Of a DNA stretch of 64,000 bases, positions 32,271 through 36,007 are shown piece by piece (within the stretch, counting starts at the first letter, position 1; each line of letters opens with the position of its first letter). The DNA comes from Nitrospirota bacterium (lineage in GTDB: Bacteria; Nitrospirota; Thermodesulfovibrionia; Thermodesulfovibrionales; SM23-35): assembly GCA_040753955.1 (NCBI GenBank), contig JBFMDQ010000002.1:6592-70591 (forward strand), written 5' to 3'. The position numbers and the translations under genes are program-made. The notes under the pieces are model-generated. The model was not told the origin of the DNA, did not search any database, and saw nothing but the letters and a program-made list of their open reading frames with translations.

Positions 32271-34163
32271 TCATTTTTGAAAGACTATTATATCTTCAAC
32301 CCCAATCTTACCTTTATCCGCCTTTGACAATCCATGCTCGATAACATCAACAACTTTGAATCCGGCAGATTTCCCTATGTCTGCTAATATTGAAGATGTT
32401 TCTATGACCTCTTCCTTACCATGGATAAGCCATGAGTGATATTTACTGATAACCATAAGATAGTATTTATTCCTTTTCAAAACTCGATAACACTCCTCAA
32501 ACGAAAGGGTCATCATCTTGAGATAATTTTCAACTATTTTAGATTTATAGACCCTTCGAGATTCATTCAGCAGTTTTATAAGATTTAAACTTGATGGTGG
32601 TAATTGGATTGAAAAATATTTATCACTGACCATAAGCGGTAACTGCTCCATATATTCTGTTTCATCCCTGTGCTTTGATTCATAGAACATCTTTGTGGAC
32701 TGCCACATTAAATCCTCATCAAACCCAAGAACCAAAATAGAAGGTTTATTATTCCCAATGTAATCCAGTGCATCAAAATAGGGAGGAGAAGTAAGGATGC
32801 CGTCTATGGAATTATCAGGAATCATTGACATATTAGTTGAGTCACCTTTAATGATCGTTACTTTAGTTTTTGTAAAATCAACTCCCAAAATTTCTCCTAA
32901 CTTTCTTGTGGCATAAAGTGTCAAGTATCTATCTTCCACGTAACTTTTAAAAGCTGTCATTATGTCATAAACCTTTTTCTTTTCTGAAAACTCTATAACT
33001 TGCTGGCTTAAAAGGATATGGAGGAACTTTTTTATAGAAGGGTTTTGAAAGCGGTCTATCTCTTTCTTAATAAATAAAATTTTTGGAAGGTGTTGTGCAA
33101 TATTCTCATATGCCTTACCATTTCCAGATTTCATTTTAGCCTTTATATTTTGCAATTCATCAGTTATGACATCTTTTTCATAGCGATCTATTGACTCAAA
33201 TAATTTAATGACATGGTTTTTAAGCTCAGGTAATGAAATACCTAAATTGCATTTTACTTCAGTAATGGTTTTCCCAATACTTAATATTTCTATACCAATA
33301 GCATTTATCCCCATAGTTGGGGCATCAGCGATAAATGCCCCAGAACCTACAAAAGGGTCTAATATTGTATCCCCCTCTTTAACATTGAGTAGATTTATCA
33401 AAGCACGAGATATCCTCGGGTCTCCTTTCCCTTTATATTTGTGGAGGTAATGAAGAAAAGGCTTTCTCAGGTCTGTAGATGCCCAGTCAACAAAGTCTCC
33501 TATGTGGTTTTTCCCTAGTCCAAAGTGAGGTGAACGATGCTCTCCTCCCTGCATATGAACAAGCAATTCATTAATCCCTTTTTCAATACCTGCCTCTTTT
33601 TCATCAAAATAAGCCCTCCAATCTACACTATTTTTAGGACGGAATACAGCAGCAGGCAGTTTTTTAACTTCTGTAGCATATTCAAAGAGTGTGTGAAATG
33701 GAAGAAATCTAATAGTAGCAAGTACTTTATCATCTTTAAGAGGCTTTAAGAATAGTTGGGAGTACGGATTTATATTTAAGGATTCATGTTGCAAATTAAT
33801 ATCGCTTACTTTTAATCCAATCTCAAAAAGTATAGATTTGATCTCATCCACAGTTTTGACTTCAAAAATAATATATATTTCTCTTAAAAATGTTGCTTTC
33901 TTGACAATGCCTATAATCTCACGGACGGGTATTTTCGCAAACAGGCCCTGTCCTTCCCCAAGATAAGGCAATCGAGATATTAAATGAATTACATTGTCAT
34001 CAAGCAAACTAAATGGCTTTTCTCTCATCAAAGCAGCAATTGTTTTTATAAAGGCCGTCTTTACTTCTAATAATGCATCAAATTCCTTCTGAGCAAAATA
34101 GACTTCATCAGGGTCCCTTAAATCAAACTTTATTTTTCCTAACCAAAGTAGCTTGTTCACCAT
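32271..34163 (-). CDS. 630-aa amino-methyltransferase with a Trm11/THUMP-like N-terminal region and widely separated catalytic motifs
   Basis: SAM-binding motif I ILDPFVGSGAF (aa 267-277, nt 33333-33365) and catalytic TSPPY (aa 458-462, nt 32778-32792) lie ~190 aa apart. The segment RISRALINLLNVKEGDTILDPFVGSGAFIADA resembles UPF0020/Trm11-type MTases. Its start overlaps the upstream MTase gene by 41 nt. Confidence 0.75.
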   Translation of the reverse strand: MVNKLLWLGKIKFDLRDPDEVYFAQKEFDALLEVKTAFIKTIAALMREKPFSLLDDNVIHLISRLPYLGEGQGLFAKIPVREIIGIVKKATFLREIYIIFEVKTVDEIKSILFEIGLKVSDINLQHESLNINPYSQLFLKPLKDDKVLATIRFLPFHTLFEYATEVKKLPAAVFRPKNSVDWRAYFDEKEAGIEKGINELLVHMQGGEHRSPHFGLGKNHIGDFVDWASTDLRKPFLHYLHKYKGKGDPRISRALINLLNVKEGDTILDPFVGSGAFIADAPTMGINAIGIEILSIGKTITEVKCNLGISLPELKNHVIKLFESIDRYEKDVITDELQNIKAKMKSGNGKAYENIAQHLPKILFIKKEIDRFQNPSIKKFLHILLSQQVIEFSEKKKVYDIMTAFKSYVEDRYLTLYATRKLGEILGVDFTKTKVTIIKGDSTNMSMIPDNSIDGILTSPPYFDALDYIGNNKPSILVLGFDEDLMWQSTKMFYESKHRDETEYMEQLPLMVSDKYFSIQLPPSSLNLIKLLNESRRVYKSKIVENYLKMMTLSFEECYRVLKRNKYYLMVISKYHSWLIHGKEEVIETSSILADIGKSAGFKVVDVIEHGLSKADKGKIGVEDIIVFQK

Positions 34164-35076
34164 TTATGTATAGCTCTTGTTGATCTAAAGTTAATAAAAA
34201 CTCCTCGATCCGCCTTTCTGCTAACCTTACATACTCTTCATTTATGTCGTATCCAACATAATGACGCTTTGTTTTTTTTGCTGCGATAGCAGCTTGCCCA
34301 CTTCCTATAAATGGGTCTAAAACAACTTCTCCTTCAAAGGTATAAAGTTGAATTAGTCTGTAAGGCAATTCCACTGGAAAAGGAGCAGGATGTCCCACTT
34401 TTGTTGCTGGTTCAGCAGAAAATATCCAGACACTTTTTGTAAATTCAAGAAATTCATCTTTTGAAATTGTGCTTTTTCTTTTTAAACACTCTCTTGTAAA
34501 TGTGCCTTTAGAGAAAACCAAAATATATTCATGAATGTCTCTTAACGTTGGATTTTTAGCAGAAAGCCAGCTCCCCCAGGCAGTTGAAGGACTGCCGCTT
34601 GAGGCTTTGTTCCAGATGATCTCACCTCTCATTAAAAATCCTAAATCGAGCATGTCCTCAATGATAAAAGTATGAAGTGGAATATATGGCTTTCTTCCTA
34701 AATTAGCAATATTAATACATGCCCTTCCACCGGGGACGAGAACTCTTTTAACTTCGCTCCATACCTTTTTTAAAAATGCTCTATACTCATTAAGAGTAAG
34801 ATTCTCGTCGTATTCCTTTCCAACATTGTATGGGGGAGAAGTAACCATCAAATGGATGCTACTGTCAGGTAATTCCTTCATCCGTTCACTTGATTTGCAA
34901 AAGATTCTATCCAGAAATTCAGATGGGATAGGATTTTCTATATACCTTACAACCTCCTCCTTAGGTAATTCATCATATAATCTGCTCGTATAAAAGGAAG
35001 TAGAGTCGTGGTTAATTCTTCCTGGTGATCCAAAAGCACTTGTTTTGGTACCTCTTTTCCTTTGAATAAACCCCAT
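34123..35076 (-). CDS. beta-class N4-cytosine/N6-adenine DNA methyltransferase
   Basis: Motif IV MVTSPPYNVGKEY precedes motif I VLDPFIGSGQAAIAAKK, which is the beta-class order. ATG at 35076 lies 1 nt after the upstream TAA and has a GGAGGGAGG SD; the ORF track starts at 35100. Confidence 0.85.
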   Translation of the reverse strand: MGFIQRKRGTKTSAFGSPGRINHDSTSFYTSRLYDELPKEEVVRYIENPIPSEFLDRIFCKSSERMKELPDSSIHLMVTSPPYNVGKEYDENLTLNEYRAFLKKVWSEVKRVLVPGGRACINIANLGRKPYIPLHTFIIEDMLDLGFLMRGEIIWNKASSGSPSTAWGSWLSAKNPTLRDIHEYILVFSKGTFTRECLKRKSTISKDEFLEFTKSVWIFSAEPATKVGHPAPFPVELPYRLIQLYTFEGEVVLDPFIGSGQAAIAAKKTKRHYVGYDINEEYVRLAERRIEEFLLTLDQQELYINGEQATLVRKNKV

Positions 35077-35077
35077 T

Positions 35078-35710
35078 TTAATCCTCCCTCCAGAGGTCAA
35101 CCCATCTTTTGTAGGAATTGAATGTTATGCTTGTTCTTTTCCAGTGTATTGGAATTTTGAAAGAATCTTTTTCGGTAACCAACCTTGATAAGGCTTCTTT
35201 ACTGAATTCAATGCCTCTCGGATTTGTACCTGGCTTCGGTAGCTTGATATAACCCTCTCGTCCCATTTCCTCAAACACCTTTCTCTGGACATCAAGGGGT
35301 ATCCAATAAAAACCACCTTCATCATCTTTATTTATCTGAATAAGCAGGATGTCACAGCGAGGATAATATTTTTCTCTAAATTCTTTTGCTGATTTAGCAT
35401 CAACAGTCCATGCTATTTTAACACTGCTAAAAGTTTTCCCAGTAAATGTTTTTATTGATATAGGCTCTCCAAACAATTTTACATCAACCTCCGACTTGGT
35501 AATTGGAATCTCTGCTTCTACATTTGCCTCATCAAATTTATACATAAGCAGGGCAACTATTATCCTTTCACGGACAGAACCCACTTCCATCCCCATTCTT
35601 CCAGCCCTTGAACTCTCTAATTCAGCAAGTTGAAATAAATAAGGTAGACGTCTTTTAATCTTCTCAACAAGTTTTTCATCTTCAAACAGTTCTATTAAAC
35701 GGCTACTCAT
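35078..35710 (-). CDS. putative restriction endonuclease partner; family not recognised
   Basis: 210 aa, translationally coupled to the MTase. A possible PD-(D/E)xK-like arrangement is FDEANVEAEIPITKSEVDVK. The call rests mainly on gene context. Confidence 0.45.
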   Translation of the reverse strand: MSSRLIELFEDEKLVEKIKRRLPYLFQLAELESSRAGRMGMEVGSVRERIIVALLMYKFDEANVEAEIPITKSEVDVKLFGEPISIKTFTGKTFSSVKIAWTVDAKSAKEFREKYYPRCDILLIQINKDDEGGFYWIPLDVQRKVFEEMGREGYIKLPKPGTNPRGIEFSKEALSRLVTEKDSFKIPIHWKRTSITFNSYKRWVDLWRED

Positions 35711-35743: not shown

Positions 35744-36007
35744 TCAAGGAAAAAGAACGTGTAACCCTTTACCTGCTTTGACATAAACCTCCCAAGTGGA
35801 TTTCTCACCAGTTTCAGGTGTAGAAATGTGTTTTACCAGACGTATGTCGGCATCGGTCAAGCTGTAGGTTTGTTTAAGTTCTATCACTCGATCTTTAGCC
35901 CACTCCTGTTTCTCAAAGACGGTTTCCAATACAAAGCCTTCCTTCTGATAACGTTCCCGAAGGGCACGGTCTTCACTAAAACCCTTGGTAACTTCTTGTA
36001 TATCCAT
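35744..36007 (-). CDS. hypothetical 87-aa protein at the head of the MTase operon
   Basis: Intact ORF 33 nt upstream of the putative nuclease gene on the same strand. No HTH or other motif recognised. Confidence 0.45.
   Translation of the reverse strand: MDIQEVTKGFSEDRALRERYQKEGFVLETVFEKQEWAKDRVIELKQTYSLTDADIRLVKHISTPETGEKSTWEVYVKAGKGLHVLFP

Follow-up and report, generated by a model that had tools for sequence, protein, structure and literature searches.

The 630-aa product of a single open frame at 32271-34163, on the minus strand of a 64,000-nt stretch of Nitrospirota DNA (the window), is likely to be a solitary Type II restriction-modification (R-M) DNA methyltransferase, probably one that forms N4-methylcytosine (m4C) in GCGC. 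DNA would be its substrate, GCGC its target and m4C its product. The best reading is that this protein, here called M2, represents an uncharacterised subfamily of known Type II methyltransferases, ie ordinary biology, and it is the genetic context that decides the function. All the features described below are on the minus strand.

Firstly, the gene is intact. The first-pass annotation had allowed for two fused or frameshifted ORFs, an explanation ruled out by homologues that are colinear with M2 over its full length: more than 120 homologue clusters (66-89% identity) and dozens of more distant homologues (25-37% identity) are all aligned over aa 3-630. DNA homology between the M2 locus and homologous loci is confined to 34159-32271, which is exactly the ORF. 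The dN/dS values obtained with the closest homologues are 0.05-0.09, and M2 is under strong purifying selection. The AF2 model has a pLDDT of 86.8 and a pTM of 0.89.

The motifs ILDPFVGSGAF (aa 267-277, nt 33333-33365) and TSPPY (aa 458-462, nt 32778-32792), their order and their separation of about 190 aa were reproduced exactly as first annotated. In the AF2 model the core is a Rossmann fold. Its strands beta1 (266-269) and beta2 (287-292), together with the AdoMet-binding DPFVGSG loop of motif I (aa 269-275), lie in the segment of motifs X, I and II (aa 248-293, 33285-33422), which is the sole segment resembling Trm11/UPF0020 and includes RISRALINLLNVKEGDTILDPF (aa 250-271). Strands beta3 (435-439) and beta4 (453-458) occupy the segment at aa 435-462 (32778-32861) with the catalytic motif IV, SPPY, which follows beta4 at aa 459-462 and is invariant in 62 aligned homologues. 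The match of M2 to PF01555 (E 2e-11) is split into two blocks whose order is permuted, the motif I block preceding that of SPPY, and profile positions 176-211 are aligned to aa 258-293. PF01170 gives an E-value of 1e-8, and TIGR01177 one of 1e-14, over 46 aa only and scoring 54 bits where the cut-off is 316. The motifs are not chance matches.

The spacing of the motifs had been regarded as atypical, which proved not to be the case. In 285 distant homologues motifs I and IV are separated by 120-240 aa, with a median of 196, and a gap of about 190 aa is normal for the M2 family. Class-alpha DNA methyltransferases have the motif order I-TRD-IV (PMC7544214), and the order in M2, motif I, then a large insert, then motif IV, agrees with that definition. 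The same spacing is found in a known DNA methyltransferase family: the PADLOC MTase_II models PDLC03224, 03377, 03362 and 03322 align in one stretch with aa 236-607 (E 1e-16 to 7e-22), and aa 241-607 are covered by these Type II models. A paralogue of 446 aa in the same genome has a spacing of 157 aa and is clustered with a Type II restriction endonuclease; a small GNAT ORF sits between the two.

The insert between beta2 and beta3 (aa 295-426, 32886-33281), delimited from the AF2 model, conservation and the spacing in homologues, holds the position of the class-alpha target-recognition domain. It had been described as K/E-rich and probably helical. The model gives six helices, as predicted, but the K+E content of 0.20-0.27 is not far above that of the rest of M2, and the first part of the description was overstated. 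A second helical insert (aa 470-560, 32484-32756), drawn from the model and conservation, lies between motif IV and beta5 and contains a low-confidence loop at aa 489-512. The part of the first insert least conserved between subfamilies is aa 321-360. When conservation within subfamilies was compared with that between them, no single stretch stood out as the target-recognition region, aa 321-360 and 501-520 being the most variable. Sequence recognition is probably supplied by the first insert, the second, or both.

A HinP1I-family endonuclease gene is found upstream of the M2 homologue at 25 of the 30 informative genome loci, which come from many bacterial and archaeal phyla, and likewise in L003-L010. 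It is usually directly adjacent to the methylase gene or overlaps it by 4 nt. About 21 of the 25 are intact or nearly so (two are cut by contig ends), one lies 1.7 kb upstream and three are decayed. Over almost the whole of its length the partner resembles R.HinP1I (1ynm), whose site is GCGC, with an E-value of 1e-56 and about 50% identity as judged by eye from the alignment. Homologues about 68% identical to M2 are spread across many bacterial and archaeal phyla. The family appears to be mobile, and it reads as the cognate methylase of HinP1I-like endonucleases.

Other partners do occur. Relatives with 35% identity adjoin PF27324 MjaV-family endonucleases, a relative on a Lactococcus plasmid adjoins an MvaI/BcnI endonuclease, and the more divergent members are found with a 402-aa protein (L001) or a ResIII/TnsA-like protein (L044). 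These divergent members, and the five of the 30 informative loci without a HinP1I-like gene, were counted against GCGC as the target. There is no named enzyme among the approximately 450 M2 homologues. A link to the characterised M.MjaV was not established, there being no M. jannaschii protein or named M.MjaV among these homologues, and a literature search on MJ1498 found nothing.

GCGC is predicted as the target because the family partner is a HinP1I-like endonuclease, the specificity being read from that family only. The predicted product is m4C because SPPY, an amino-methyltransferase motif, is present in 282 of the 285 distant homologues and GCGC contains no adenine. M2 would bind GCGC and flip a cytosine into the SPPY pocket, where the methyl group would pass from AdoMet to N4 of the base to give m4C. 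As the partner endonuclease is gone, M2 would act as a solitary methylase of the roughly 1,400 GCGC sites in the genome. GCGC shows no avoidance in this genome (O/E 0.89), a point weighed against the reading, and the value for CGCG is 0.71; avoidance of either tetranucleotide, taken as a sign of resident restriction, was uninformative.

No match to a HinP1I-like gene (PF11463) was found in this genome, which is 97.8% complete, nor was any HinP1I-like remnant seen in the window, and M2 is here best described as a solitary methylase whose usual HinP1I-type partner has been lost. The start of M2 is overlapped by the last 41 nt of a gene for a beta-class N4/N6 DNA methyltransferase of 325 aa (34123-35100; full PF01555; PDLC03350, E 1e-138). 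The gene at 35078-35710 encodes a ThaI-family Type II restriction endonuclease of 210 aa (PF15514, E 5e-92), of which the 325-aa enzyme is the cognate methylase. The recognition sequence of ThaI is CGCG. At a related Nitrospiraceae locus (L018) the same site carries R.HinP1I-M2-hisB, and homologues of this type, with an intact HinP1I-like partner, are 87-89% identical to M2. Probably the ThaI-type R-M pair took the place of the HinP1I-type endonuclease at this chromosomal site and the older methylase was retained, and the locus would then illustrate cleanly how restriction genes turn over at a single site.

The survival of a solitary gene under strong purifying selection could also indicate that M2 is the same kind of DNA methyltransferase with a target or base other than m4C in GCGC, for example with a specificity changed after loss of the endonuclease and the enzyme kept as an epigenetic regulator. 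A close relative (L007/L008) in which M2 is kept beside a decayed R gene, and the non-HinP1I partners of some family members, point in the same direction. We regard this as unlikely. The identity of 87-89% to the partnered homologues of the L018 type leaves little room for a change of specificity, and the DNA homology covers the whole ORF.

M2 is on the same strand as the ThaI-type pair and overlaps it, and might be a functional second methylase of that system, either required alongside the beta-class enzyme for protection of CGCG or protecting overlapping GCGCG sites. The R.ThaI-M.ThaI-M2 composite recurs with the same junction in an Edwardsbacteria MAG (L048), and a homologue of the ThaI-type methylase is also next to M2 in L026. 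Such a role is nevertheless quite improbable, as CGCG is palindromic, the beta-class methylase is complete and the usual partner of M2 is HinP1I-like. In L048 itself the frames of R.ThaI (210 aa) and M.ThaI (322 codons) are uninterrupted from end to end, but M2 is internally deleted, with aa 141-438 lost, so that M2 is dispensable for the ThaI system there.

The first-pass annotation had placed M2 with tRNA m2G enzymes rather than classical R-M methyltransferases, and for the segment of motifs X and I the resemblance to Trm11 was borne out. The best match of this segment in the PDB by phmmer was an archaeal Trm11 (6zxw, E 3e-10), a profile search against archaeal Trm11 gave an E-value of 6e-13, and hhalign a probability of 99% over 58 columns. 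A Foldseek comparison of the full model, which that annotation had proposed, put Trm11, Trm14, TrmN and RlmKL at the top, in alignments about 660 columns long, the closest being Trm11, Trm14 and TrmN. Among solved structures, those nearest to M2 in both sequence and fold belong to m2G tRNA methyltransferases, and this was counted against the DNA-methyltransferase reading. Many M2 homologues are named 'tRNA G10 N-methylase Trm11' at JGI; at NCBI most are 'hypothetical protein'. The similarity is real but limited to about 50-60 residues in motifs X, I and II.

It does not extend detectably to the N-terminal domain (aa 1-235, 33459-34163), although the first 250 aa or so had been likened to Trm11/UPF0020 enzymes. 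The domain, described here from the AF2 model, Pfam, Foldseek, hhalign and conservation, consists of an alpha/beta core (aa 1-165) and a long helix (aa 182-209), with invariant residues K10, K12, D14, R16, E27, R64, Y67, R94, E95, E161, E165, K168, R210, D223 and D226. A THUMP or Trm11-like N-terminal half was rejected on four grounds. No Pfam family was matched at E<=10 by the N-terminal 235 aa of 10 members of the M2 family. PF02926 (THUMP) gave no match in this genome, compared with matches in 11 of 14 control genomes. Alignment by hhalign with the NFLD+THUMP region of 16 Trm11 N-termini gave probabilities of 0.2-0.5%, the same as the negative controls, and among the 50 best Foldseek matches of the isolated domain (PDB and BFVD) there was no THUMP protein. 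Sequence searches of the PDB with the whole of M2, or with this domain, gave matches at the level of motif I only. The Foldseek alignments of the full model to Trm11 do span the N-terminal region, and there may be a very remote kinship. The probable contribution of this conserved basic domain is DNA binding or clamping of a generic kind. A conserved domain of 235 aa with no family or fold match poses a small structural question.

That M2 is a Trm11/UPF0020-type N2-guanine methyltransferase of tRNA or rRNA, with its N-terminal half a diverged THUMP-like RNA-binding module, would explain the motif X-I match, the Foldseek ranking and the JGI labels, but is very unlikely. The sequence similarity ends after some 58 columns, none of the four methods gave a THUMP signal, and M2 has SPPY, not DPPY. 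The gap of 190 aa in M2 compares with 64-71 aa in 16 Thermoplasmatota Trm11 proteins (D-x-PY), in line with the short gap that had been ascribed to Trm11-type enzymes. M2 is in tight operon linkage with restriction endonucleases at most loci, which contradicts its placement among the tRNA enzymes. Its distribution across domains at about 68% identity is patchy, and at some loci (L048) it is decayed or deleted; Trm11 was detected in 38 of 41 Thermoplasmatota genomes.

The relationship to N2-guanine RNA methyltransferases, the closest solved relatives, together with the guanine that makes up half of GCGC, suggests a further scheme in which the base that M2 methylates in DNA is guanine, at its exocyclic N2, and not cytosine at N4, its N-terminal domain being a new DNA-handling module derived from THUMP or replacing it. 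We know of no R-M chemistry of this kind so far, and the scheme is highly improbable. It is highly unlikely that the 630-aa frame is an artefact of fusion or frameshift, or a Type IIG-like enzyme with an N-terminal nuclease: the N-terminal domain does carry numerous invariant acidic and basic residues and is a separable module, since in P0228 its first 155 aa are joined to an M48/M78 peptidase, a different architecture, but the close and distant homologues are colinear throughout, the pTM indicates a single compact protein, homologous loci normally carry a separate endonuclease gene, and neither Pfam nor Foldseek matched the domain to a nuclease family or fold.

A solitary Type II methylase leaves current concepts of R-M systems unchanged. 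The assignment corrects a recurrent database mislabel, from 'tRNA G10 N-methylase Trm11' to Type II R-M, and places a widespread, cross-domain gene family of uncultured lineages in Type II restriction-modification with a specificity that can be tested. A marine MAG has been reported to carry m4C at GCGC without an assigned REBASE methylase (PMC8919816), and the M2 family is a candidate for that activity.

Compared with archaeal Trm11 (PDB 6zxv, 6zxw, 5e71), Trm14, TrmN and RlmL, which provide the best match to motifs X-I-II, and the best overall Foldseek match with the same order of I then IV, M2 differs in the undetectable THUMP domain, in the longer gap and in SPPY; Trm11 is a housekeeping gene with vertical inheritance, whereas M2 appears to be a mobile R-M gene. 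The beta-class PF01555 methylases (M.PvuII and CcrM type, and the 325-aa neighbour) share with M2 the Pfam family, SPPY as motif IV and DPFxGSG as motif I. Their order is IV-TRD-I, however, and that of M2 is I-insert-IV, circularly permuted, with PF01555 in two separate pieces. M.HinP1I and M.HhaI are m5C enzymes for GCGC; with them M2 would share the predicted target and the protective role beside a HinP1I-type endonuclease, but they methylate cytosine at C5 and have PC as their catalytic motif, and M2 is an amino-methyltransferase with SPPY and m4C as the predicted product. The Type II N4-cytosine/N6-adenine methyltransferases of class-alpha order, of which M.MvaI and M.BcnIB are examples with SPPY, have in common with M2 motif I, a long insert and SPPY on a Rossmann core, as well as Type II endonuclease partners, and three of the PADLOC models (PDLC03224, 03377, 03362) align with aa 236-607 without a break. 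Identity to them is only about 23-30%; the insert of M2 is between beta2 and beta3, and the M2 family has in addition the conserved N-terminal domain of 235 aa and the second insert of about 90 aa after motif IV.

M2 (32271-34163, minus strand) reads as one uninterrupted frame of 630 aa, with a Rossmann AdoMet-dependent amino-methyltransferase core, an SPPY catalytic loop and a class-alpha-like order of motifs. Motif I, ILDPFVGSGAF, is at aa 267-277 (nt 33333-33365, minus strand) and motif IV, TSPPY, at aa 458-462 (nt 32778-32792, minus strand), in exact agreement with the positions and the gap of about 190 aa reported in the first-pass annotation. Both are true methyltransferase motifs, since profile searches match them. 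In Pfam, PF01555 (N6_N4_Mtase) matched in two separate stretches (E 2e-11), its C-terminal, AdoMet-binding portion corresponding to aa 258-293; PF01170 (UPF0020) matched aa 249-290, and the NCBIfam model of the archaeal Trm11 family, TIGR01177, matched aa 248-293 with 54 bits against a cut-off of 316. The AlphaFold2 model, built from 62 homologues, was confident (mean pLDDT 86.8, pTM 0.89). The N-terminal part is an alpha/beta domain (aa 1-165) with a long helix after it (aa 182-209). Of the Rossmann strands, beta1 spans aa 266-269 and beta2 aa 287-292; six helices (aa 295-426) are inserted before beta3 (aa 435-439), and beta4 (aa 453-458) runs into SPPY. Another helical insert, disordered in part, occupies aa 470-560, and the last strands reach aa 629. 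The earlier proposal of a long helical insert is therefore borne out, as the model shows six helices between beta2 and beta3. The stretches most variable between subfamilies are aa 321-360 and 501-520.

When 1.84 billion representative proteins were searched, 2,515 relatives emerged. M2 belongs to a tight group of more than 120 sequence clusters (66-89% identity, full length) from bacteria (Nitrospirota, Hydrogenedentota, WOR-3, Omnitrophota, Marinimicrobia, Caldisericum, Desulfobacterota, Clostridia) and archaea (Methanosarcinales, Thermoplasmata, Pacearchaeota, Nitrosotalea), the close homologues being labelled 'hypothetical', 'Trm11' or 'N4-cytosine DNA methyltransferase' in the databases. 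DNA-level homology between the window and homologous loci starts and stops exactly with the ORF (34159-32271). Thirty-six loci from species-representative genomes were surveyed, and 25 of the 30 with informative upstream sequence carried a HinP1I-family endonuclease gene (PF11463) upstream of the methylase, the two usually lying 0-10 nt apart or overlapping by 4 nt. In about 21 loci, including two where a contig end cuts it off, that gene was intact or almost intact; it lay 1.7 kb upstream in one locus and was decayed in three. The same arrangement was present on metagenome contigs L003-L010. Along almost its entire length the partner protein matches R.HinP1I, for which a crystal structure exists (1ynm; E 1e-56), at about 50% identity as judged by eye from the alignment. 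HinP1I cleaves GCGC. Full-length relatives at about 35% identity, which keep the N-terminal domain and its invariant residues, adjoin MjaV-family endonucleases (PF27324) on archaeal contigs, and more divergent members have other restriction or defence surroundings. Two unrelated MAGs have, directly upstream of the methylase, a Type IV restriction gene (GmrSD_N) and an ORF of 204-206 aa that carries no annotation (L026:42-1733, L031:2323-3999), and in the first a ThaI-type methylase homologue lies just downstream; in a third locus, L044, the methylase start is overlapped by a gene whose 936-aa product combines a ResIII helicase with a TnsA-like nuclease. In a close relative (L007/L008) the methylase is kept beside a fragmented endonuclease gene. 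Apparent frameshifts in MAG copies of M2 (L045, L046, L050) and of the HinP1I-like gene (L035, L039) could be true decay or assembly errors. The family is thus linked to endonucleases, and its context is the pattern expected of a mobile Type II R-M methylase, not of a housekeeping RNA methyltransferase.

No match to PF11463 was obtained in this genome (1.69 Mb, 97.8% complete), and no remnant of a HinP1I-like gene was found within the window. A complete second R-M system, of Type II, lies upstream of M2 on the same strand (34123-35710, minus), comprising a ThaI-family endonuclease (R.ThaI, 210 aa; PF15514, E 5e-92) and a beta-class methylase (M.ThaI, 325 aa; full PF01555; PDLC03350, E 1e-138). 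The ThaI target is CGCG. In a related Nitrospiraceae MAG (L018, 1091-4405) the order is R.HinP1I-like, methylase, hisB, the methylase being 89% and HisB 90% identical to those of the window, where a radical-SAM gene and a repeat copy sit between M2 and hisB. It follows that a HinP1I-type system once occupied this chromosomal site; the endonuclease found there differs between the two lineages. The R.ThaI-M.ThaI-M2 composite recurs with the same junction in an Edwardsbacteria MAG (L048) as one colinear segment, 78.6% identical; an 87-aa ORF (35744-36007) with no family match lies outside it. There M2 (L048:2021-3020) has lost aa 141-438 by an internal deletion and is reduced to a 142-aa and a 194-aa ORF, and the ThaI-type R and M frames are open over their full length. 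M2 is therefore dispensable for the ThaI system, and the deletion shows the decay of a hitch-hiking methylase. In the present genome M2 alone is left of a HinP1I-type system, and its dN/dS of 0.05-0.09, measured against the three closest homologues, shows that purifying selection on it is still strong.

The substrate of M2 would be DNA and, by analogy with the partner endonuclease family, its target is probably GCGC. SPPY is typical of m4C enzymes and GCGC contains no adenine, so the expected product would be N4-methylcytosine. One or both helical inserts may recognise the sequence, while the N-terminal domain would probably have a target-independent role, such as DNA clamping. The genome contains about 1,400 GCGC sites and does not avoid them (O/E 0.89, maximum-order Markov expectation); on the same measure CTAG is extremely rare (0.11), GATC depleted (0.51) and CGCG at 0.71. 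A metaepigenomic study reported GCGC methylated to m4C in a marine MAG for which REBASE offered no matching methylase (PMC8919816), ie the modification occurs in nature; that study drew no link to the M2 family.

The 235-aa N-terminal domain is the unexplained part of M2. It is common to the HinP1I-linked and MjaV-linked subfamilies and has many invariant Lys and Arg. In one metagenomic protein of 389 aa (P0228) its first 155 or so residues are joined not to a methyltransferase but to an M48/M78 IrrE-like metallopeptidase (HExxH); this fusion argues for a separable module and could itself be a rearrangement artefact. The THUMP identity suggested for the N-terminal half was rejected, every test being negative. 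Among ten diverse family members the domain had no Pfam match at E<=10; PF02926 matched nowhere in this genome but did match in 11 of the 14 control genomes; comparison with the NFLD+THUMP region of Trm11 by hhalign gave 0.2-0.5% probability, no better than negative controls; and Foldseek with the domain modelled separately (core pLDDT about 88) found nothing significant in PDB and BFVD (best E 0.02-0.03), with THUMP proteins absent from the top 50.

The likeness to Trm11 is genuine yet narrow. By sequence, the top match in the PDB is Trm11 of Archaeoglobus fulgidus, over aa 248-295 only (E 3e-10; E 6e-13 in a profile search), and hhalign of the family's C-terminal part with the Trm11 methyltransferase domain gave 99% probability over only 58 columns. 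Whole-model Foldseek placed Trm11, Trm14, TrmN and RlmKL at the top (E 5e-9; TM 0.57, normalised to Trm11), and because these Trm11 alignments reach about 660 columns, a very remote kinship of the N-terminal parts is conceivable. The spacing, held to be unusual, is so compared with Trm11 (64-71 aa from motif I to D-x-PY in 16 Thermoplasmatota proteins), but not compared with DNA amino-methyltransferases, whose class alpha has motif I first, the target-recognition domain next and motif IV last (PMC7544214). Equal spacing in a DNA methyltransferase family had been named beforehand as contrary evidence, and it was found. Several PADLOC Type II methyltransferase models (PDLC03224, 03377, 03362, 03322) cover aa 236-607 unbroken (E 1e-16 to 7e-22), and 285 more distant homologues in which motif I precedes motif IV have them 120-240 aa apart (median 196), with SPPY as motif IV in 282. 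Another R-M cluster in the same genome (contig C31; L012:1129-3504) contains a 446-aa paralogue of order I-insert-IV with a 157-aa spacing and a Type II endonuclease of 222 aa (PDLC03511, E 6e-34), a GNAT-like ORF of 128 aa lying between them. Many relatives of about 950 aa (P0322-P0339 and others) are double methylases, a second module (PF03602 / PF01555) being fused N-terminally to the I-insert-IV module. The subfamily itself appears uncharacterised, with no named or studied enzyme among about 450 homologues and no connection found to M.MjaV itself. The first-pass observation was correct and its interpretation largely incorrect. M2 is of an already known kind, a Type II DNA amino-methyltransferase whose motifs run in alpha-like order.
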